Part shown: positions 5,832 through 30,577 of the stretch, one piece after another | How the letters are laid out: the number at the start of each line of letters is the position of its first letter | How positions within the stretch are numbered: position 1 is the first letter of the stretch | Assembly: GCA_027923505.1 (NCBI GenBank) | Contig: BROI01000001.1 | Span: forward strand, 1,054,001-1,118,000 | Direction: 5' to 3' | From: Mayamaea pseudoterrestris | Lineage: Eukaryota | Length of the DNA stretch: 64,000 nucleotides | Notes under the pieces: model-generated | Told to the model about the DNA's origin: nothing | What the model saw: the letters and a program-made list of their open reading frames with translations, nothing else | Database searches by the model: none | Translations under genes and position numbers: made by a program

Positions 5832-8685
5832 ATGGTGCTCGGAACGTACCTTCGCGAGAACGGCAAAATGATTGTCTCGCGGATGATTCCATACTGGCTG
5901 ACCTGCGTATCGGCAGCCTGGATCGTTACATTCTTGTATATCTGGTTAGTAGATGCGGCTTACGCTTGGTATGACACGGTGTTTGGGTCAAAAGTAAGTA
6001 AATGCCGCGGCGCTTTCGCATTGGTGTAACGGACTGTAGAACAACGCCTTTTAACACCACCTTCCCTTGATATATACGCTGCATGTTTCTTGTTATAGGT
6101 AAGAACAGTAGCGGTTCATTGACATCTTGCCTAGTCTCTTCATTCTCATTCTAACGCTGTCGTTCCTCACCTCCCGTTCGAAGATTTTCAAAAACTTTGG
6201 CGACGAAATGATTGTTGGATATGGCTCTATCATGGTCGGCCTCATCGTTCCATTGATGTCTACCGCGTCAATCGCCGCTTTTCTTGTGACCAAGACGCCG
6301 CTTCCTGCATGGAAATTTTCCTGGGCCAACAAATTCTTTACCATGATCCGTCGCTTCAGAGCTGACGACGCAGAATACGGTCGCCACCTGGCTAAAAGGA
6401 ATCAGTTTGCGAAGGGGGAAGCAAACTTTAATCTGATGGCCATTTGGTTTGTTGCCCTTCCCAGTCTCATTGGCGCATTTGGCTATGTGCCATTTACAAT
6501 CGAATACGCGCCCATTTCGGCAGAGGAGCACGGAGTGAGCGAGGAACGCATGAAGTGGGTTCATGCCTCTGCCATTCTCGGATGGGGATCAATCATCGCC
6601 ATGTCAGCTTTTTTAATACCAGGTATGAGAAATGCGAATGCGATTTGATCTATCACATTCCTTACCATCAACTGCATCGTTTTGCTGACTTGCTTCTGCT
6701 AATAATTGCCATCGCTTAACCTTTTGCCAGTGGCCCGACATTCGATTCTATTGACTGCCATGGGGTAAGGATTTGTTGTCATTGCATGCGATTCACACCT
6801 TTACTCCAAACATACGGACTCAATCAATAGATCTGCTTCTTGCACGTTTGTTCCAACAGATGGTCTCCTATTCATGCTTTGCGCATACATATTTGGGCAG
6901 GATATTGCAGCTTTCTCATGGCCATGAGTCATACGGTCACCATGTTTGTGGTCTTTTGGGGCTTTGACAAGATTCCGCTTCGAGACCAATTTATTCCCAA
7001 GGCAGAATGCTGGGCGAAGGATGCCAACTTTACGCTTGCGGAAGGCGAGATGCACCCGCCACCAGAGGCTGATTGCCTTTGGCAGTGGTGGAATCTGACA
7101 GGAGGGTTTGCAGCGCTGTTTTTAGTCATCCTCTGGGCGACAAGCATCAATTGGGTCCGTCGCAAGAACTATCGTGTATTCTACGTCTGTCATGTTGTGT
7201 TTGGAACGCTCTTGATCCTGGCTACTTTCCTTCACTTCGATTTCTGCGCCATTTATATGTAAGTTCATGTTTGAGAGTGCATGATAGTGCAGTCAGGTGA
7301 AAAGGCTAAACCGCTAGACAAACGCATGCCGCAGGCTACCTAGCACGGCCTACTACATTGCAGCGACGGCGCCGTCTTTGATTCAAGCACTTGCTTCTCG
7401 CTTCCGCGGCGGAAACAAAATCGTTAAGGTGGTGGCGCTCCAAGATGCCGGGGGTTGCGTCGAGTTCCATGTCGCCACTGACTCTGAAGCTGGCAAGGTA
7501 ATTAGCACGGAAACCAATCTCTACGTCAAGCTTTGCGTCCCCAAGAATTCCTTGATCTGGCATCCATTTACCGTCTACCAGCATCCAGCCGATCACAACA
7601 TTGTCCGAGTCCTTTTCCGCCCCGTCGGTCCCTTTACCAAGCTTTTGTCCCTTCACTTGACCGCTCCTGAGCGTCCGGTTACCATTTTGGATGGCTTTTA
7701 CCGCGGTTCAGACCGAGTCGCCCATTCGCTCTTGCACGACCATGTCACCATCATTGCAGGCGGAGTCGCCATTACTTCCTTCCTTTCCTTTGTTCCGCGT
7801 CTGCTGGATGCCGTAGCCATGCAATCCAAGGAAATCCGCCTTTTGAACAGCATCACGCTCCACTGGGCTGTTCGCGAAACGGGTCTCGAGAAGTATATAC
7901 TCAAAGAGTTTTTACGTGTCTTCATGGCAAAAGCCAACGTGATCGACGGGCTTGATTTTCAGATCAAGATACATTGCACGGGAAGAAAGGCGACGGCGGT
8001 GGCGACTGAGGGCAAGGACATTGAAAGCTCCGACGATGGTGCCGAGCCGGCTATTGCAGTGGACGAGACGAGCTCTGGTTCTGATAGCGCCGAACTGATC
8101 AAGGAAGACACTCAGGCGGCAGTGGTTCACGACATTGCCAATGACACTGGCTTTGCCATGGAGCTAGCTCGCACCATGCCTGCCCGCTTTACGGAAATGC
8201 AGCGAAATATACCATACGCAGCTGGTTTTGTGGGCTTCATGTGGCTTGGATTCCACTTGACATTTTTCCAATACTCGTGGAATGATGACATCAACTATGC
8301 TGGTCTTACCAAAGTGACTTGGTACACGATACTCTTTGTCGTCCTGTCCGTTGTCTACGGCGCTGTTGTCGAAGGAGGGGAGCTCTTGTACCGCAAGTAC
8401 GTCCCGGCACCGCACGCGGATGACTTTATCGTGGAGCAAGGCATCAAGACTTTGGACGATGAGACGAATGCTGCCGTTCTCTTTGACTCTGCCAAGCTGT
8501 CAAAAACCTTTGGTCGTCCGACTCCCGAGTTGCTCTTGAGTGAGGCTAGTAATTCCGAGGCGCCTGGCATTTTCCTCTGCGGCCCGACCGCGTTGTGCCA
8601 TGATGTGTTCAAGGAGGCGCGCAAGGAGAATTCGTTCTTGGGGCTTACGCGATACTGCATCTACGATGAGCCGTTTGAAATGTAG
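5832..8685 (+). CDS. FRE: Ferric reductase-like transmembrane flavocytochrome (FRE/NOX family); 5 exons (5832-5993, 6112-6622, 6731-6764, 6860-7258, 7335-8685)
   Basis: Heme-His helices (LRIHIWAGY...SH; FYVCHVVF...LH), FAD motif WHPFT, NADPH motifs IAGGVAIT and LCGP, C-terminal EPFEM. In-frame GT-AG introns; the first acceptor is the least certain. Confidence 0.88.
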
Positions 8686-8949
8686 TAGTAGTCACTAATC
8701 TCTAGTGCGCTGAAGTTAATAGTGTTTGGAACATGATCTACCAGAACAGTACAGTGCCGGGAGTTCTTGCCGTCGAATCGTCGTACGAGGTACTGCCTTC
8801 GGGTGAATAGCTCGCCATCGCATCGGTACTCATAGACTTTTCGCAGAGCGAGAAACCACCATGATGATCCATGATCCATTTCCGCCACTGCCTTTAACGC
8901 TACCCAAGCGATTACGCATCAAATGAATTAGCATATCACATCATTTATC

Positions 8950-11900
8950 ATGTCAATTTCTCCTCGTCTATCGCAAATATTGACGCCTCCGCCCATGGCG
9001 ATTAGCAGCAGCAGTCTCGAATCAATCACCGGCTCGGCAGCCATTCGCTCGCTCGCAGCGCAGACAAGCCTGCATCAGTGCGGTTTTGATACTGGTACGA
9101 CTAGCAATCAGGTGAATACGTCAATGACTAGCAATAAAGGTCGATCGGGAACATCGGATGCAGCACTGAGTTCGAGCGCAACAAGCACTACTGGAGCTGC
9201 CCATGCGACGCAGTTTCAAAGCATTCAGCGAATGATGACGCTACATCCAGTCCTTCCTTGGGTCGCGTACGTCTTGGAGTATACAAAGTCACATACGCAA
9301 CAATCATCTTCATCATCATCGAGTCAGCATAAGACGCTCGTCGTGCAGGATTTACAGACGCAGCAAGTTCATTGGAGCTTGACATGGATGGATCTAGCGG
9401 CTTGCTTGTATCAGACGGAAAATACGCCCAGCAAACTAGCGAGTGCTGCCAAGAGCCTTGGAAGCATTTTTGCATTAGAATTCGTCGATGCTTCTACTCT
9501 ATATTGGTCCGGAATGAGTCCGACGGCAAGAACGCGACAATCATCATCAACAGCAGCAGCAGCAGCAGCAAATTCATATTTACCACCTTCAGCCTACTTG
9601 CTTGTTCAAACGTCTCATCGCTGCTTGGTTTTGCAGCTACGCAAGTCGCCCTATAGCGACTGCATCGTTTGGACCAAGGCGGAAGTTTCCTCTCGATTGC
9701 TAGCCCGACAGGCGCTGCTTGTTTCGCACATGGAGCCGCCGTCGCATCATGGTCATGCCAGCACTGATGACGACAAGAGCACTAGCGCCTCTTCCGACAA
9801 GATCTTGCCATCAAGCAACTGGTTACCACTGTCGGATGCACTCTACTTGGTCGGATGTTCCGATGGAAGCATGCAGTGCTGGAACTCGCGTTTGGGACAA
9901 GTCGTCAAAAGCATTCGGGGTTTGGGAAGTAGCTCCAGCGGCGCCGACAAGGATTGGATCACCATGCTGCACGCGGCGAATCCATATCACAAGCGATCTA
10001 GTGCTGCGAGTGCGACAAGTGGGATATTTGGTGCGTCGAGTGGAGAAGTGGAACCGTCGGCTGCTGCAGCATCACAGCGCAGACGCATTTTGGCAGTCAC
10101 AAAGAAGGGACTGGCATATCTCATGGAGATTGAATGGCATGAAGTAAGCATGGCATCTGTGGATTCGTTGGAGGACGACTTTGACGACATGAACATGATG
10201 ATTGAAATCAAGCCTCCACTTGCCCGCTTCGTCGGTGGGGCTGGTACTTTGAGTAGCCGTGACACAGCATTGATGGAGCATCAGCTATTTCACTATGATG
10301 CTCATCGCGACTGGATTCTATGGCTGCAGCCGGTGTCGCCACTTCAACCAACAACGTCCAAAAGCAAGCATGCAACGACGACGACCGCTCCGACGCTGCT
10401 CGTGTGGAACCTCAAGCTACTGGAGAAGGAAATAATGGCCAACGCCGTTGGAGGAGGCAAGTCCATGATGAAACCCGAACCTACGCTGACAATGCAATTT
10501 TCCGCCGCGCCGGAAGACTCAATAATGACCGTACTACCATTGCAGCAACACACGCCATTTAATGAAGATACAGTGGTGTGTGCGGTGGTCTCGACGAATG
10601 GCGATTTTTGGATAAGCGCAGCGTCCGCACGATCGAGAAACACGGCGGCGATTCCAATATTTGCCATGCATTTATCGAATTTACTGCAGAGTGGGGCTGA
10701 CTTGGATCATGCTCCAATTGTTCGTATACATGGATTGGGTAGTCAACCATTAAGTGATAAGTCAATGCTCGCGCTGGCGACAAACCTTGGCATTATCATT
10801 CTCGAAATTCCAGCTGCAACGGGCGATCGCCACATGCATTTGGGAGCCGGTCTTGGCACATTTGGCAAAAGCCTACTGAGTGTACACAGCAACTCGGAGC
10901 TCGTTTACGAATCGCTGGACGTGCTCAAGGCTAATCCATATGGCATTATGGAACCGAAGAACCCTGTCCCTGTGTATGAGCTACGACCGCCGGTGCATTT
11001 ACCGATGGAATATCAAAAGCGATCATTTCGATTAACGCCCTCATTCATTCCAAGCCCATCCGGTTTGTACTTGTGTTTGTTCAATCCGGGCGAGTTCCAG
11101 TATGAAATACTGCATCTGCCGTCGCTCCTGCAACGGGTCGGACAACAGCGTGGGAACGCCACGCCAGGTGGATCCAAGCCACTCGTTGCTTCTGGCACAG
11201 GCATAGCGTCGTTTGCATGGGTTGGCGATGAAGACTGCTTTGCTATACTGCATGCAGAGGAATGGATGAATGAAGCTTCAATGCTTATATCAGCGGCGTC
11301 AGCAATTAACGCGGGCGAAGGAACGCCCGCAGCATCTTCATCGCTGCTGGCAGGTGTCACATCAACAACCAAGATGGTTGGAGGGGCCGCGGCACTTGTC
11401 GGCGGGGCGACTCTCAACCTTACGAAGGCAGCCAAAAGTACAACCATGGCAGCTGCAACGGGTGCGTCGAAGGCAGCAACCATGGCAACCACCACCGCAA
11501 CAAAAACGGCAGTATCGGGCTTCAAAAAAGGCGCTAAGCTTGCGACATTTGGTGTATTTTCCAAAAAGAAAAAGAAAGGTGGTGATGATGACGAGGGAAT
11601 GAGTACAATGACGGATGACATGGAGGAAACGAGTGCGAATCTAGAAATGCTACAAGTTGGCGGAGCACCGCTGCCGATTGACACTGCTGGGTCGGAAATG
11701 CGCATCGCTTTGAAGCGACGCTATGTGGAGTTGAAATTGCTGATATTAGTCGAAAATTCGGGAGACCCTGCTATTGGCAATGTTCCAGCGGCGACTACCT
11801 CATCTATTGGCAATCTAACGCTCCGGGGCGGTGGGCAGAATCTTCCTGTCGCATTGTTTGGTGGACCGGTTCTTTGCGTTGCGAGTCAGACGGATGGGAA

Positions 11901-12975
11901 TGACGCTGGTTATGCACACTTTTATACCCTTAAAAATGATGAAACGGAGAAAGATGCGTCACTCTACATTTCGACGGGCCCAGCTTTGCCCTTTCCAGAC
12001 CTTTGTGTTTGGGACGACGAGGGCGTTTTATGCGCGATTGTGATGTGCAATCGGGTTTCCATCTACATGTCGCAGAGTCCTGAATTTGTTCTACTTGGGT
12101 CGGTTGGCATAAACACCAGCTCAACAATTCAAAATGCCAAATTCATACATGGTGTTTTATATTGCTGCAGTTGGCATTCGGTTTCCTGTGTAATCCTGGG
12201 CGATTTGGACGGTCAGGTGTGCGATGTGGACTGCTACATGCTAACTGCTTCGTCTATCCAAGGCATTCCAGACATTCGTTTTTTGGATGGAGACTACCAT
12301 TCTCTTTCGCCTTCATGCCGTCCTTTACCTCTTGTGCAACCAGCTGTCCTTGGTTATCAGAATGGATCTTTGCTGATTTCGACGGCTCGTGGCGTTTTTG
12401 CACTACCACTTGATCATCCTATCTTGCGCATCGGTCTGCTGCTCGCATCAAATCAGGTGGAACGAGCGACAAAATGGCTCGATGCCATTCCAGACCACGA
12501 CCACGAACCTTTGGCAACATTTCTGGAGCGTCGTGGTCAAGTTGAATTGGCGTTAAAGCATTTGAACGGTTTAAGTCTAGAGACTATCATTGACATGAGC
12601 ATGCGCCACGGTTTCATTGATCGCCTTTGCGAAGTGGTAGAGGAGTTTGGTGTCAAAGGTATCTGCGCTGTGGATTTGGGGCGCGGCTACAGCACGAATG
12701 GCATGTTTGGCCCTGAGCGTGAAAGTCAGAGTTTGCTTGTCTGCGCCGCTGCCTATCTCCTCGGTCATGGAAAGGTCGAAATTGTACGTCGACTGACCAG
12801 CGAGCTACTTCGCACTGATAACGGCAGAGAGGACGCACTATTGCTGGCGACATTGCTGTTACATGTCAATGAACCCGATGCTACAAGACTCATGGGACGT
12901 GCCGTCGAAGGCAATCTCAGCTCCGACTGGGTCATGGGCGCGTTTGTCCGTTATCATGTGCTCAAACAGCCATAG
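8950..12975 (+). CDS. Large WD40/coatomer-like beta-propeller plus alpha-solenoid protein, most similar to TSET/TPLATE subunit TWD40-2 (TTRAY2/TstF)
   Basis: 1341-aa ORF. N-terminal LHPVLPWVAY and a WD-like LVGCSDGSMQCWN. C-terminal LDHPILRIGLLLASNQVERATKWLDAIPDHDHEPLATFLERRG resembles the TWD40-2/beta'-COP solenoid start, as recalled. The true start may be downstream (e.g. 9124). Confidence 0.6.
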   Translation: MSISPRLSQILTPPPMAISSSSLESITGSAAIRSLAAQTSLHQCGFDTGTTSNQVNTSMTSNKGRSGTSDAALSSSATSTTGAAHATQFQSIQRMMTLHPVLPWVAYVLEYTKSHTQQSSSSSSSQHKTLVVQDLQTQQVHWSLTWMDLAACLYQTENTPSKLASAAKSLGSIFALEFVDASTLYWSGMSPTARTRQSSSTAAAAAANSYLPPSAYLLVQTSHRCLVLQLRKSPYSDCIVWTKAEVSSRLLARQALLVSHMEPPSHHGHASTDDDKSTSASSDKILPSSNWLPLSDALYLVGCSDGSMQCWNSRLGQVVKSIRGLGSSSSGADKDWITMLHAANPYHKRSSAASATSGIFGASSGEVEPSAAAASQRRRILAVTKKGLAYLMEIEWHEVSMASVDSLEDDFDDMNMMIEIKPPLARFVGGAGTLSSRDTALMEHQLFHYDAHRDWILWLQPVSPLQPTTSKSKHATTTTAPTLLVWNLKLLEKEIMANAVGGGKSMMKPEPTLTMQFSAAPEDSIMTVLPLQQHTPFNEDTVVCAVVSTNGDFWISAASARSRNTAAIPIFAMHLSNLLQSGADLDHAPIVRIHGLGSQPLSDKSMLALATNLGIIILEIPAATGDRHMHLGAGLGTFGKSLLSVHSNSELVYESLDVLKANPYGIMEPKNPVPVYELRPPVHLPMEYQKRSFRLTPSFIPSPSGLYLCLFNPGEFQYEILHLPSLLQRVGQQRGNATPGGSKPLVASGTGIASFAWVGDEDCFAILHAEEWMNEASMLISAASAINAGEGTPAASSSLLAGVTSTTKMVGGAAALVGGATLNLTKAAKSTTMAAATGASKAATMATTTATKTAVSGFKKGAKLATFGVFSKKKKKGGDDDEGMSTMTDDMEETSANLEMLQVGGAPLPIDTAGSEMRIALKRRYVELKLLILVENSGDPAIGNVPAATTSSIGNLTLRGGGQNLPVALFGGPVLCVASQTDGNDAGYAHFYTLKNDETEKDASLYISTGPALPFPDLCVWDDEGVLCAIVMCNRVSIYMSQSPEFVLLGSVGINTSSTIQNAKFIHGVLYCCSWHSVSCVILGDLDGQVCDVDCYMLTASSIQGIPDIRFLDGDYHSLSPSCRPLPLVQPAVLGYQNGSLLISTARGVFALPLDHPILRIGLLLASNQVERATKWLDAIPDHDHEPLATFLERRGQVELALKHLNGLSLETIIDMSMRHGFIDRLCEVVEEFGVKGICAVDLGRGYSTNGMFGPERESQSLLVCAAAYLLGHGKVEIVRRLTSELLRTDNGREDALLLATLLLHVNEPDATRLMGRAVEGNLSSDWVMGAFVRYHVLKQP

Positions 12976-13103
12976 CTACCGGTACTCTACATACTTACGA
13001 ACCCGACGCTAGAAAACTCATGGGACGTGCCGTCAAAGGCAATCACAGCTCCGACTGGGCCATGGGCGCGTTTGTCCGTGATCATGTGCTCAAACAGCAT
13101 TAG
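12871..13103 (+). repeat. 105-bp direct duplication of the last 35 codons of the upstream gene (12871-12975 and 12999-13103)
   Basis: 96/105 identical with no indels; both copies end in TAG. Confidence 0.95.
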
Positions 13104-13423
13104 TTATAACTCATCAACTCTCTAACGTTGCATGTATGGCGTTGTGCAATACAACCTGTTCAAAGCAGCATGACTTTAAATTGTATGGAAATGGAGCCGC
13201 TACTTAAATTGTCTGAAATTATCGTAACGATTCATGCGTACTTTTACCAAGAGGTAGAGAAGTTAAACGGCAGCAAGTGGATGAACGGTCGACTGTCGCC
13301 CAGTAGGTTATAGTCGTGCTTTTAATATTACCTATAGCTTGCGAATGCGTCTGTTCAGTGTTTTCTCTCGTACATACCCGTCGGTTGTATTGCATTTGTT
13401 GCTGAGTCGCGACGTTATGGCTG

Positions 13424-13509
13424 AACAAACATGGATACCATATGGCACAGCAAAGCTCAAGTAGCCAGCCCAGATATGCAGCCGTCAAGGATGAACCGGA
13501 GACCATCTG
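13424..13509 (-). pseudogene. Decayed fragment of a ferric reductase paralog (equivalent of exon 4)
   Basis: Minus strand reads cag|a WSPVHP*RLHIWAGYLSF versus the intact cag|a WSPIHALRIHIWAGYCSF (6857-6914). 44/58 nt identical, same acceptor phase, in-frame TGA. Confidence 0.75.
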
Positions 13510-21092: not shown

Positions 21093-22187
21093 TTAAACAA
21101 TAATGAACGTTGCCGCCGTCGCAAGCATTGTCATGACAACCATCAACCATGCACATCCACTGACTGCAGCCGCTCCACTCAGCTCCTGAATGGTTCCATC
21201 GCCTGCACCCGTTGGCGATGCGGTTGGTTTTCCAGCTCCGCCCTCGCAAAAGGCACATTGCTCTCCCGAGTAGTCGCAACCCAAGCTGCAAGTGCCGTTG
21301 CAGTTGCCTCCGCAGTCGATCGTCACGCATGTTGCAAAGATGAATGGGTCTGGGACAGCAGTTTCATTAGTAGTGTTTGTCATAATTGTAGCATTCGCCT
21401 CATCCTGCAACCAACGACGCATCGCAACCGTCTCTAAAGCGGTTGGAGCCGTCGTTAGAAAGGGTGATATGACCGTGCCGGCTGGAGTAGGACCGGCAGT
21501 GGCCGCTGACACTGTCTCGTTGGTAAGCGCGCCATCAGTCGCTGCAGTTGGAGTTTGCGTCATGCTGCCAGTTGTTGGAGGTTGCGTCATGCTCGTTGAC
21601 GTTGGAGCCATGGTCATTGAAATGGATGGCGCCATTGTCGTTTCAGCCGTGGATGGCGGCATGGTTTGATCGGCCGTGCCAATGTCTCCTTCACTGCTCG
21701 GCGCCATGCTTGGGGCTTCCGATGGAAGGTACCTGCTGCAATCCAAACTCAGCGATGAGCTTCCAAAATCAATGGGGCAAACTGTACAAGGACAGTTCTT
21801 GGGAATCTTGCTTGTATTCGATGGCGTGATCAAGACGCTGCAGCTGCATCCATTCGCACGTCGGAAGTCAAACTGCGCCACGCCCAGCTCGCAAACAACT
21901 GTGGCATTCAAATCGACATAATCTTCCGGCGTTCCGACTCGCTGATGAATGAGACAAGCAAACTCCAAGCCGCCCTGGGTGTAACAGTCCGAGCTCGGGG
22001 CAATCAAGTCGGGCAAGGTGCCTCCCGATGTCTGAAGGGCCCGAGGTGACTGCTCGCGCAAGTAGGCGGACCGAAAGTCATGAAACTGGAGTGCCGCATG
22101 GGTTGCTCTTGGAGAATTCAATAAGAGGGCAAGAGCGATTAACAGTAGAGACATCCACGACGAGGTTGCCGCTGAAACGGTGAGCAT
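21093..22187 (-). CDS. Secreted Cys-rich, Thr/Pro-rich surface protein with hydrophobic C-terminus (GPI-anchor-like)
   Basis: Signal peptide, two Cys-rich domains flanking a TMAPS/SMTQ repeat stalk, RXL motifs RALQ and RWLQ, hydrophobic tail. Confidence 0.8.
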   Translation of the reverse strand: MLTVSAATSSWMSLLLIALALLLNSPRATHAALQFHDFRSAYLREQSPRALQTSGGTLPDLIAPSSDCYTQGGLEFACLIHQRVGTPEDYVDLNATVVCELGVAQFDFRRANGCSCSVLITPSNTSKIPKNCPCTVCPIDFGSSSLSLDCSRYLPSEAPSMAPSSEGDIGTADQTMPPSTAETTMAPSISMTMAPTSTSMTQPPTTGSMTQTPTAATDGALTNETVSAATAGPTPAGTVISPFLTTAPTALETVAMRRWLQDEANATIMTNTTNETAVPDPFIFATCVTIDCGGNCNGTCSLGCDYSGEQCAFCEGGAGKPTASPTGAGDGTIQELSGAAAVSGCAWLMVVMTMLATAATFIIV

Positions 22188-22830
22188 GATGCAATGGTGG
22201 CTGACGAAAGTGAATGTGATTGGTGATGCTGGGCGAATGTGAAGGTGCGATGACAGAATGAGCAGTGAAAGCGAGGATCTACCAGCCGATAGACAAACGG
22301 ATTCTTCTTTCTTTTACTTGAGCAATACAAGCTGGATTCGCGCGCGCGATACCTCACGTAGCCCTTACCAACGTCGTTCCGGCACTGATTCGCCACCACA
22401 CAACTCAATCATGACGCACCAAGGGCAGACAGTCGATAACGGACTCTCGCCACGACAAGCTGATTGTGATCCCGCCGGAAACGCTATAACTACGTGAAGC
22501 AGCAATATAAACTATACAGGCTTACACAATACAATCATCCAGTGTATACGACGCTAAAATTAAGTCAATCGGAGCTTGTTTGAGTATGTGGGACCCGCTG
22601 CAATGTGAAGGATTCATTTGCGCGCTCCCTTGCCGGCGAAATGGAATTAAATGCCTCAGATAATGATCCAAGTAAGAAATCCAGCTATCAGCTCATTACT
22701 CATCATATAATTAAGACAGCGTTGACGCAAAACATGCTGAAAATTGTACCCTTTCAGGTCGTAAATGGAGGCAGCAACCAGAGAGACAATTTGATGAGCT
22801 CTTCTGAGGCAAGTAAACTCACCATCCAAC

Positions 22831-22911
22831 GTCGTTAAGGCCACTATTACTCATCAATTGCATCCATGGCATGTGTATACTCGTTTCATCCAATAATAGT
22901 GGCCTTAACGC
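22831..22911. repeat. About 80-bp hairpin module, copy A
   Basis: 17-bp perfect inverted arms CGTTAAGGCCACTATTA (22833-22849) and TAATAGTGGCCTTAACG (22894-22910). Confidence 0.9.
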
Positions 22912-23163
22912 CTCATACTTGTCTTCATCTTGCCAGTTTTGTGGCGGCGGCATGGAACGAGCCCTTGCCCAAAACGATGATTTTGACGCACTAGCCGATC
23001 CTTAGGCTGACGAATCGCTAGATATGACATCTCCGTGATCACGTTTGAGTATGGACAACTTTGCGCCGGTGTTGAAAGACCTCTTCGGTTTGATCGAACC
23101 AAATTTTGCCGAGCATGGTCGAGGCAACGTACCACTGCGAGGAGAATTACTCATGATCCCTAT

Positions 23164-23245
23164 GTCGTTAAGACAACTATTATTCATCAATTTCATCCGT
23201 GGCATATTAACGCATGTTACGGTCCAATAATAGTGGCCTTAACGC
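23164..23245. repeat. About 80-bp hairpin module, copy B (direct repeat of copy A)
   Basis: First 42 nt are 37/42 identical to copy A, last 23 nt are identical, and the central 16-17 nt differ. Confidence 0.9.
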
Positions 23246-23895
23246 GTCAAACTGGTCTATAGTTGACTCAAGAGCAGCTCTCCGTCGAATTATCGTGTGA
23301 TTTAACACGGAGTACCGGTACGATGATAAGCGAAGCCCATTCAACCGGTGCGACTTTGGTAAGGGCTACGTGAGGTATCGCGCGCGCGAATCCAGCTTGT
23401 AGTAGCAGATATTGTAGAGGTGCGAATTGTGGCAGCAGGTCGTCTTGGTCGCTCGGAACGTTGGGCCGCGAGTTATTGGATCGACCAAGAATGACCAAAT
23501 GACAGTTTACTCACGGGCGTCGTAGAATAGCGCATGAAAACCCCACAAATTGGGGTTGTAGACGCAAGTAAGTATAATCGAGAACCGGTCCGATTCTATT
23601 CTAAGCCGGAGCGACATTTCATTCTTTCGCCGTTTTGGTCATTTTTTGGCGAGGCAGTCGAGCGTCGCGCAGTCGATCGACCTTCATTCTCGCCCATACG
23701 AGCTGCAAGTATCGAGCTGCTACTTCCACACTCGATATACCTTGCATCAAGCAGCTCGTAGACACAGAGGTGAGATGATTTGACGCCTTATTGCCTTGTG
23801 TGACAGGACTTGCATGCTTGAATGGAAATGCTTGCTAGTGGCTTCTTTCGATTGTTACAGATTATTAATTGTGATAGTAAGCGTATATTAGAACT

Positions 23896-26742: not shown

Positions 26743-29700
26743 TTAGTCGTCGAAAGCACCCAGCTCATTCATCCAAGAACGTCGCATTTCGACTTCCTCG
26801 CTATGGCGTTGACGCTTGCCAAGGGCTTTTGCCCGATCACGAAGCTCTACGGCAACCTTTGCTTCCTCGCCTTGCTCACGTTGCTTCTCGAAAACAATCT
26901 TTGCCATGGGTAGCAACAGCTTTAATAGAACATCAACCAGCTTGTCGACTGATTCAAAGTCGCGAACAATGAAACGAGGATACTGCTCCAGATCAACCTC
27001 ATCAATATGCTTGACATTGACGGCGGAAGTTATTTCCTTGATGGCTTCACTTTCCTCCTGATCAATCTGGTCCCATCCTTCGTCATCTTGATCGTCTGAA
27101 CTTTCGCCACCACTGATTCGTTGTATATCCTCCTTGCTTCCACCACTAATTTCAATGTCAACACCGAACGGTGAAAATCGGCCAGGAAAGCAAACATCAA
27201 CTCCTTTTGGAAGTACACCACGTGGAAGCAAAGACGCAATTGTCGCAATGTGCCGAGGCCGCAAGCCAGGGCTTCGTAAAACACACTCGGGCCCATCAAC
27301 GCCTTCCACAATGCCGACCAGATCGATGCCAAGTCGCCGGCACGACGCATGTAGATGCATGGTTTTAAGCTGGCTTTGCAGGTGAGCGGGCAGCGGCCCA
27401 TATGTTTCCTTCCAATAGTTTGTGAGAGCAACCAGCTGCGCAGTATTCTCAGCGAGGCGGGCTTTGGCAGCCTCTTTATACATCACTTCCTTGTCTTGTA
27501 TGTAATCTTCGGAAACCGAAAACGTATCAGGAGATCCAAAAGTAGGAACGAGCATACTCGTTCGCACCACAAGCGGCAAGTCCAAGCCTCGAAGCTTGCG
27601 AATACTCTTCTTCAGCATGCGCATGTAGAGATCAAAGCCAACTTTTGCGGCCAAACCAGACTGCTCCGTGCCTAACAAGCTACCAGCGCCACGGATTTCT
27701 AGATCGCGGTTCGCGATATCAAAGCCGGACCCCAGCTCATTCATTTCGGCCAGAGCTTGCAGTCGCATCGCTGCAGTCTCTGTATAAGACTCCACTCGAT
27801 GAAAGAAGTACGCGTACGCTTGCTTGTCGGATCGGCCAACTCGACCTCGGAGCTGGTACAAGGTCGACATTCCAAAAGCCTGGCTGTTCACGACAATAAT
27901 TGTGTTCACAGTCGGAATATCGACACCATTTTCAATCACAGTCGTTGCCAATAAAACGTCATGCTTGCCTTCGGCAAATGCTGCGACATTTTCTTCTGCG
28001 CCGTTTCGCAGCATTCGACCATGAGCTCGAATAATACGAATGTCAGGTGATATCTGCTTGATCGTTTCCTCGGCATCGTCAAGCATGGAAATCTTTGGAA
28101 CAACGTAGTAAATTTGCCCTCCGCGATTCAACTCTGTTTCAATGGCTTGGCGAACCAGATCTTCGTCGTACTCCTGAACGTAGGTGACAGTCGGCTTGCG
28201 CATCGGCGGAGGAGACCGAAGCGTCGACGTGTCCCTGATACCGCTCAAACTCATCTGAAGTGTTCGCGGAATCGGTGTTGCACTGAGAGTAAGAACATCA
28301 ACTCCGTTGTAGATGAGCTTGAGTCGTTCCTTCTGCTTGACGCCAAAACGCTGCTCTTCATCCACCACCAAAAGCCCGAGATTTTTGAACGAAACACGGT
28401 TAGACAAAAGGGCGTGTGTACCTACAACCAAGTCTGCTTCGCCGGAAGAAATTTGCTCTCGAATATCTTTCGCGGAAAGTGTTCCTCGCTTACTGCCACC
28501 GCACAGCAAAGCAATTTTTAGATTGAACGGCGTGTCGGGGCCCATTCGCTTCATCAAATTCTTGTAATGCTGCGATGCGAGGACTCCAGTTGGCGCCAAT
28601 AGGGCAGCCTGTTTGCCATTTATGATGGCTCTATACAAGGCCCTAAAGGCAATCTCGGTCTTTCCAAATCCGACGTCACCGCAGACAAGCTTTACATAAA
28701 AAGATAATTGGACACGATGAGTTCAAGGCAATGCAGATTCAAGACATTTCATTTGCCAACAAGTCACACTTACTCTATCCATCGGTCGACTGCGCCATAT
28801 CATGTCATTCTCCACATCTTCAAAGCACTTCTTCTGATCCACCGTCGGTTCAAAAGCAAACGTTTCCTCCAATTGCTTCACCTTAACTTCCTTGGCCGGA
28901 TCAAATGGCGTTCGCTGCACCGTCTCTCGCGTTGCGTACAGCGCCAAAACATCCTGTGCCATTTCCATGGTATTTTCCTCAACGCGCTGCGTTGCCTTGG
29001 CCCACGTGTCGCCCCGCAGCCGCGATAGTTTTGGTTTAATTGCAGCGTCGCCAGCTCGGTAGCGACTCAATCGATACGCTCGATCCAGTGGCACGTGAAC
29101 AATGCCATCCATGTAGGAGACTTCCAAGACTGTCGTTTGCGGATTGGATACAATGTCAGTGTCTTCCTCCGTTCCAAACTTGTCGCGAATTTCATTAATG
29201 TCCTTCGCCGTGACAGATCCGTTGATGTCTTGCAGCTCCTTCAGCTTGATTGTCAGTATCTCTGCTCGTCGTTTGTCGCGAGCTGCGATTTCATCAGTTG
29301 AAAGCTTGGTTTTTGGTTGCAGGCATGTCCGATCAAATCGCCCGATTCCATATTTGCGATGAACAACAAAATCTCCGGGAAATACTTCCAACGACCATCC
29401 ACCGGCGCTGCCAATGCGAATGCCAGCTCGTTTCGCAAACGATAATGACTTGTTGGGTAGTACAGGTGCTGGTGTCGATTTTGCACGAGCGTCAACCTCC
29501 TCTTTATCTGTATCACTTGCCAATCCAATCTCTAACTTTTTATCAGTTGTACTGTCCTCTGCATCACCTTCCATGAGCGCTTCCCACTCGGCTGTCATTT
29601 CAGCGTCCATTTCGCCGCCTCCGGCTTGCTGATTGGCTTTATTGTTCTTATTTACTTCATCCATTGACGGCAAGACAACCTGAAACTCAAGTCCCTGTGC

Positions 29701-30282
29701 TTGTGCAATGGCGGCATGTATTGCATGCTCCTTGTCCTGCTGAGCTTGAAGCGCTTGTTGTTGCTTCAATGCTCGCTTGGCAGCAGCAGCTGCTGCTTCT
29801 CTTGTTTCTTCTGAAAGTGATGCAGCCATTGCTGCTTGCTCTTCCTCTATCCGTTGATTGTTTTTGGTAATGGAACTTTGCCAGCTGGCGTCTTCGTCAT
29901 CCCCGTCAGTATCATCATCGTCATCGTCGTCTTCGTCTTGAACAGCTCCCCATTTGCTATTTGAGTCGTCGTCGTTGATCCGTTTCCGTTTCACTTGATT
30001 GCTGCCGACAACGACATCCAAGTCGTTTGGATTGTGAAAGCGAGCCATTTCGAGTCGAGTACCTGATACTCTGAAAGAATAGAATAGTCCATGCCTTTGC
30101 CTCTCGTCTTGTCGCCTCGAGTGAAAGTTTGATTGATGTAATGCTGGAACGAGTGCAACAGAAGCATGTCGCCGCGTGACGGATGCCGAAAAGGAGAGGG
30201 TCGTTGGCCAATTGAAAAGACATGCAGACAATATGACAGCCAATGTATTCAAGCTATAGGCGTCTCGTCTTCTCCTTATCAT
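26743..30282 (-). CDS. mfd: Transcription-repair coupling factor (Mfd/TRCF-like DExH helicase), probably plastid-targeted; 2 exons (30282-28774, 28689-26743)
   Basis: CarD-like [73 protein letters not shown]. Signal peptide ending TLS-FS. Confidence 0.93.
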
Positions 30283-30577
30283 GACGTTATAGTTATAATG
30301 GGCGCAAAAAGTGGAAGGAAAGATGGACCTTCGAGCCCAAAATGAGCTGATCGTTCCAATCGAATGGCAAAATCTTTTGTCGCAGTGGTGCTCACGACGA
30401 CTTACACCATGGGATATGGGACGCAGAATCGGCGATAACATTATTGACTGGCACAAGCAACTCAAAGACACTTGTGTAGCTTCTATATAGTGGTTCATCT
30501 AAGGCATGCTTGACTTTATTGACTTCGTGTAACGTGTGTCTGGCAGCAACTTTACCCAGCGTCACTCGTCATTCATT

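Follow-up and report, generated by a model that had tools for sequence, protein, structure and literature searches.

The two hairpin modules at 22833-22910 and 23166-23244 are ordinary internal structure of a non-autonomous DNA transposon of 1,072 bp (22328-23399), which is present in many copies and whose insertion at this site is polymorphic. The window, by which we mean the whole 64-kb stretch of DNA that was analysed, had received a first-pass annotation in which these modules were singled out as the best candidate for an undescribed system. This rating is unsupported, the checks on public contigs having come out ordinary as far as the contigs show. The nesting of the modules in an element with terminal inverted repeats was borne out, both of them lying within 22328-23399. 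On balance, we consider it probable that the modules are paralogous, palindromic, MITE-like segments that constitute passive cargo of a non-autonomous transposon of the Tc1/mariner/pogo type.

An inverted-repeat search delimited the outer element by a left terminal inverted repeat at 22328-22382 (plus strand), which contains a GCGCGCGCGC run, and a right terminal inverted repeat at 23345-23399 (minus strand). With the TA included, the inverted arms (22326-22382 and 23345-23401) measure 57 nt each and are 95% complementary, the first 44 nt being identical in both. The ends begin CAAGCTGGATTCGCG..., and the insert runs from CAAGCTGG to CCAGCTTG with a TA on either side at the filled site. Each terminal inverted repeat also harbors a 12-nt alternating CG run (CGCGCGCGCGCG-like; 22338-22349 and 23378-23389), which forms a perfect palindrome. 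A 22-nt piece of the terminal inverted repeat recovered no matches in a prokaryote-genome collection and none in a viral collection.

The decisive evidence on mobility comes from a single contig of the public sequencing run X3, which joins position 22325 to 23400 and skips 1074 letters, with two letters (TA) that fit either side. This contig, which has a depth of 98.1 and 72 letters on its shorter side, reads GAGCAA-TA-GTAGCAG across the junction, and identifies 22326-22327 and 23400-23401 as the left and right copies of a TA target-site duplication. As the empty site in X3 retains a single TA, the outer element is a mobile cut-and-paste transposon that duplicates its TA target, and the locus represents a precise insertion polymorphism. 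The right flank of the element is covered in X3 solely by the empty-site contig, and all X3 contigs carry another letter at positions 22850 and 22879, which fits the absence of this particular copy from that sample. Since the precise empty site was found in another sequenced sample, the element has moved recently.

The outer element shares with the Tc1/mariner/pogo superfamily its TA target-site duplication and terminal inverted repeats, and on the basis of the TA duplication it most likely belongs to that superfamily. ISL2EU elements likewise generate 2-bp duplications. A Pfam scan of 38 ORFs of the window detected no transposase domain, and no further copies or fragments of the outer element were found elsewhere in it.

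The multicopy state of the element emerged from Logan contigs of four public runs, which were placed on 22200-23500 at 80% likeness and amounted to 170 in all; such contigs are of limited length and lose rare variants, and the comparison used tables in which their differences and pieces are partly listed. Run X1 supplied 73 and run X3 91 of the placed contigs, and these range from 80 to 100% in identity (99 and above, 95-99, 90-95 and under 90%: 28, 17, 18 and 10 contigs in X1; 20, 31, 22 and 18 in X3), so that the outer element constitutes a repeat family. In X3 the summed contig depth is 640-2586 inside the element versus 98-290 in the flank bins, a figure that is not a copy number; as a rough guess there are of the order of ten or more copies. 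The family is structurally variable in an internal stretch upstream of module 1 (22570-22755), where joints in other copies (22569>22651, 22595>22682 and 22636>22756, among the joints listed) skip 81, 86 and 119 nt, respectively. These three joints, all within 22569-22756, together with that of the empty site, make up the four joints listed, and none of the four skips a module or the spacer at 22911-23165. Likewise, no contig from which a module is missing was seen among the 170 placed contigs, which are short; there could be infrequent copies whose cores differ or that lack modules.

Within the element the basic anatomy reported at first pass, namely two self-complementary direct repeats 333 bp apart, is present in the sequence. 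Module 1 has arms at 22833-22849 and 22894-22910 (CGTTAAGGCCACTATTA and TAATAGTGGCCTTAACG), 17 nt in length, complementary at all 17 positions and separated by 44 nt, with a core at 22873-22888. The arms of module 2 (23166-23184 and 23226-23244) are 19 nt long, 89% complementary (17/19) and separated by 41 nt, with a core at 23206-23222. The modules are 333/334 nt apart from start to start. Their first 42 nt match at 37 positions and their right sides are identical over 23 nt (22889-22911 versus 23223-23245), both as originally noted. The arm occurs four times in the window at up to three mismatches against 0.04 expected, a number reached in none of 100 shuffles, and a solo module was found nowhere in the window. 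A stem of 17-19 bp is possible on both strands. When folded as single-stranded DNA, module 1 yields -16.6 kcal/mol (z -5.6; 0 of 200 shuffles as good) and module 2 yields -11.2 kcal/mol (z -2.6; 3 of 200). Both modules show the arrangement TTAA/GG...CC/TTAA.

The direct repeat extends beyond the hairpins, such that each module together with its shared flanks forms a longer unit, at 22817-22924 and 23149-23258 (both on the plus strand), with 79% identity over 110 columns. Beyond the TTAA the flanks common to both modules comprise a CG on each side, followed by matches at 5 of 7 positions on the left and 10 of 14 on the right. These shared bases fit the duplication of one unit, and the argument drawn from them at first pass against two independent insertions therefore retains its force. 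A 333-bp tandem duplication is ruled out by the unrelated sequence downstream of each unit. There are also traces of a wider symmetry: the left flank of module 1 (22785-22815) bears a weak inverted similarity to the right flank of module 2 (23260-23294), which is in turn a weak inverted partner of 23138-23163. With the arms included, 22796-22849 and 23228-23280 match in inverted orientation at 75% of 56 positions; the flanks by themselves were equalled by 15 of 2000 shuffles, and the left flank of module 2 against 23260-23294 by 65 of 2000. The left flank of module 1 may thus derive from the outer part of a longer inverted repeat of greater age, and the sequence hints at an ancestral unit in the form of an inverted-repeat element of roughly 150 bp, from which unit 1 would have been truncated on the right.

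The centres of the two modules had been described as swapped, and this claim stands in part. Outside the cores the units differ at 10 of 83 positions (7/47 on the left and 3/36 on the right), whereas the cores differ at no fewer than 7 of 17 positions (at least 7/17) in the best gapped alignment, an excess over the flanks with a binomial P of 0.002 and a Fisher P of 0.008. Hence, the cores do differ more than the sides. However, the best gapped alignment of the cores, with matches at 10 of 17 positions, is equalled by 24% of shuffled cores, so that a true replacement cannot be told from scrambling by small indels. A relationship in which core 1 is the reverse complement of core 2 was also considered and dropped, this alignment being no better than the forward one.

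The other copies of the element allow the fate of the cores and of the sequence between the modules to be followed within the family. One X1 contig of 127 nt (record 5) covers 22797-22922 and so the whole of module 1; it departs from the window sequence by 8 letters and 2 gaps, a tally into which a swapped 16-nt core would not fit. A loose end in two X1 contigs carries core 1 with one change (22879 A>G), and two X1 and three X3 contigs have one extra letter behind 22883. For module 2, record 20 of run X6 covers 23053-23249 with 11 other letters; as 8 of these are listed at 23057-23192, at most 3 can fall in the stretch that holds core 2. Other copies have the letter G at 23173 (A>G), which restores one pair in module 2, indicating that the weakness of its left arm in the window arose by decay in this copy only. 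The 255-bp spacer (22911-23165) is found at 87-100% identity in other copies (records 6, 7, 15 and 16). With the same cores and spacer in diverged copies, the cores are not hypervariable and the cargo is not exchanged: among the contigs listed both cores are fixed in the family and show point changes only. Accordingly, neither the hypervariable core nor the variable cargo envisaged in the first-pass annotation materialized, the structural variation being located instead at 22570-22755.

The spacer had further been characterized as a coding-like segment of about 250 bp. A spacer of 255 bp is indeed present, but it has no match to a coding or RNA family. Pfam searches with nine ORFs of the outer element gave three weak matches (E 0.05-0.9), all far under the cut-offs, and Rfam gave a sole match, to mir-251, which at 21.8 bits (E 0.18) stays under the cut-off of 45. 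An 83-aa open frame through module 2 found no relative in a protein search. A 60-aa frame through module 1, compared with 1.84 billion representatives, had one match, to a 626-aa repeat protein by way of a short DETSI..W motif, which was judged spurious. At the nucleotide level, the 19-nt arm occurs at one locus in a metagenome collection, as a single arm within coding-like DNA otherwise unlike the element, and the 17-nt arm at seven loci in a viral collection, again as a single arm each; the latter were taken as chance, and the two that were inspected are coding-like phage DNA. The arm and terminal-inverted-repeat strings were in no paper found, and no description of the element was found in the main texts of the literature on diatom MITEs, mariner-like elements and non-autonomous DNA transposons, a search with narrow coverage of diatom TA-duplicating elements as a class.

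These observations suggest a scenario for the origin of the paired modules. A single palindromic, MITE-like segment of about 100-110 bp would have been duplicated to give rise to the two modules, and the segment would have become part of the 1,072-bp transposon before the latter multiplied. The transposon is proposed to have been moved in trans by a transposase encoded elsewhere, with the modules being carried along passively. Small indels or a short replacement might have altered the unpaired loop of one copy in a single event prior to amplification, after which both centres would have been inherited and altered by point mutations only. The modules probably lack a function of their own. Certain features speak against such passivity: the arms of module 1 are perfect (17/17) and the right 23 nt of the modules are identical, and this in units whose left sides differ at 7 of 47 positions. 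Constraint or gene conversion, as opposed to pure neutrality, could account for the perfect arms and the identical 23 nt. Due to these features, and because both modules are kept, in copies down to about 87-92% identity, there is a slight chance that the modules are retained cis-elements, for example hairpins to which the transposase or a host factor would bind, or sources of small RNAs that regulate the family. If this were true, the arms would be under constraint and the two fixed cores would have distinct roles.

Among the alternatives to the passive-cargo origin, we regard as possible, though rather unlikely, two independent nested insertions of a mini-MITE of about 70 bp into the ancestor of the outer element, before its amplification. 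The target of such a mini-MITE would be either TTAA, for an element GGCC...GGCC of the Kolobok or piggyBac type, or TA, for an element AGGCC...GGCCT. The perfect 17-nt inverted ends and the TTAA on both sides of both modules are in keeping with this proposal. The ends of MITE families are often common and their interiors often unlike, which can be counted in its favor as well. As first noted, the TTAA/GG...CC/TTAA ends agree with the minimal Kolobok signature, which is given in an excerpt of PMC6004289 as a TTAA target and an RR terminal sequence, the RR after TTAA being a weak criterion in that two purines occur by chance in 1 of 4 cases; an excerpt of PMC5859163 moreover lists PiggyBac for a diatom. 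However, the flanks outside the TTAA are common to both sites (the CG and the 5/7 and 10/14 matches beyond it), and 23 nt that reach into the loop are also shared, so that conservation goes beyond the ends. Further, no joint across a module-less site is found among the joints listed, and the module bins in X3 are without extra depth (1508 and 809 versus 2191 and 1417 in their neighbours). Finally, there is no solo module in the window, and three public collections produced chance single-arm matches only.

An improbable alternative is that the arms serve as internal binding sites for the transposase, as in IR-DR Tc1-like elements or subterminal repeats, and aid the assembly of the transposition complex. 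The inner part of the left terminal inverted repeat does resemble the left flank and arm of module 1 (CCAACGTCGTTCCGG-CACTGATT versus CCAACGTCGTTAAGGCCACT-ATT), with 8 of 1000 shuffles scoring as well in what was one of eight comparisons; in addition, the outermost arms with their flanks make up the imperfect inverted pair described above, and the arms are better preserved than the loops. Against this, the right terminal inverted repeat has no such similarity (733, 679 and 428 of 1000 shuffles as good), and the arm is unlike the terminal 40 nt of the inverted repeat, where a transposase should bind. No additional arm copy is present in the outer element at up to five mismatches (0 versus 0.15 expected), the modules are placed asymmetrically in it, with about 505 nt to its left end and 155 nt to its right end, and the left arm of module 2 shows decay at two positions in this copy. 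We find it very improbable that the modules act as small structured RNAs, in which a constant hairpin scaffold would hold a variable or guide-like centre, or that small RNAs are processed from them. Such a role could draw on the 17-19-bp stem available on both strands, on the dissimilar centres of the two modules, and on two extra matches of core 1 in the window at three mismatches against 0.22 expected in total; core 2, in contrast, is unmatched elsewhere in the window. The centres are the same in other copies save for point changes, and hence not variable, and Rfam recovered nothing beyond the subthreshold mir-251 match, so that this suggestion of the first-pass annotation found no support. 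The stem is also short and the loop measures 41-44 nt, an inner stem predicted in module 2 is missing from module 1, and a mutation private to this copy (23173) breaks a pair in module 2. Hardly credible is the proposal, likewise made at first pass, that the modules are recombination sites bounding an exchangeable cassette of about 255 bp. It has in its favor that two like-oriented palindromic sites bracket a segment; yet the same spacer recurs in other copies as documented above, no contig or joint listed excises a module or removes or replaces 22911-23165, and there is no recombinase nearby.

The outer element resembles the non-autonomous elements of the Tc1/mariner/pogo (IS630-like) group and the Stowaway-like MITEs in its TA duplication, its terminal inverted repeats, its non-coding content and its multicopy state; like MITEs of the Tc1/mariner/pogo type it is insertion-polymorphic and located among densely spaced genes, with an ORF start about 140 bp away. 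MITEs are usually under about 800 bp in length, and unlike the Stowaway-like ones the outer element is 1,072 bp long, contains two internal palindromic sub-repeats, and has no matching transposase or autonomous copy that we could see. In IR-DR Tc1-like elements, of the Sleeping Beauty and Tc3 type, short motifs are similarly repeated in direct and inverted orientation inside a TA-targeting transposon; the motif under study differs in that it has no match to the terminal binding region, is situated far inside and asymmetrically, and is palindromic at each site. The modules themselves, as short inverted-repeat units with TTAA on either side, are like piggyBac-derived MITEs. However, piggyBac ends are of the CCC...GGG type, whereas those of the modules are GGCC...GGCC, and there is no sign of independent insertion. 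The modules also resemble Kolobok MITEs such as the Xenopus T2-MITE/Xmix, as described in an excerpt of PMC6004289, in being small, hairpin-forming and TTAA-flanked with GG...CC termini; unlike the T2-MITE of that excerpt they lack an AGGRR motif in the TTAA register and share flanks beyond the TTAA; moreover, no empty site or solo copy of them was found, and no transposase in the window.

The window itself is eukaryotic nuclear DNA, with Pfam domains such as Gtr1/RagA, LSM, mitochondrial carrier and PI-PLC among other eukaryotic ones. The nearest named relatives of its RagA-like ORF are from the pennate diatoms Seminavis, Phaeodactylum (83%), Fistulifera, Fragilaria, Cylindrotheca and Nitzschia, the top match overall being an unnamed protein at 93%. 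Descriptions of class II elements and MITEs from diatoms are scarce; according to an excerpt of PMC5859163, the diatom Phaeodactylum tricornutum harbors MITEs, PiggyBac and MuDR elements, the MITEs being newly seen in a diatom. A by-product of this study is thus a recently mobile, TA-duplicating class II element in a pennate diatom, and an active family of this kind could furnish a marker of strain differences or a lead to a usable transposase.

A minus-strand ORF lies on either side of the outer element; the start codon of the one at 21093-22187 is about 140 bp away. This 364-aa ORF, which adjoins the transposon and is without a Pfam match, contains two pairs of 27-nt tandem repeats with 74% identity (21547-21676). 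Other repeats were observed farther away: a 119-nt direct repeat with 128-nt spacing and 87% identity (12860-13106) lies at the end of a long ORF (8932-12972) that likewise has no Pfam match, and a 58-nt inverted pair (6857-6914 and 13452-13509), 76% complementary and 6.5 kb apart, could be due to chance or represent the ends of a larger old element. On the minus strand at 26746-30498, two neighbouring open frames, with a stop or short intron between them near 28722-28726, carry DEAD, Helicase_C and TRCF domains along with a CarD_TRCF_RID domain. Taken together, these frames resemble a gene for a bacterial-type Mfd (transcription-repair coupling factor) within diatom nuclear DNA, the product of which is presumably organelle-targeted.
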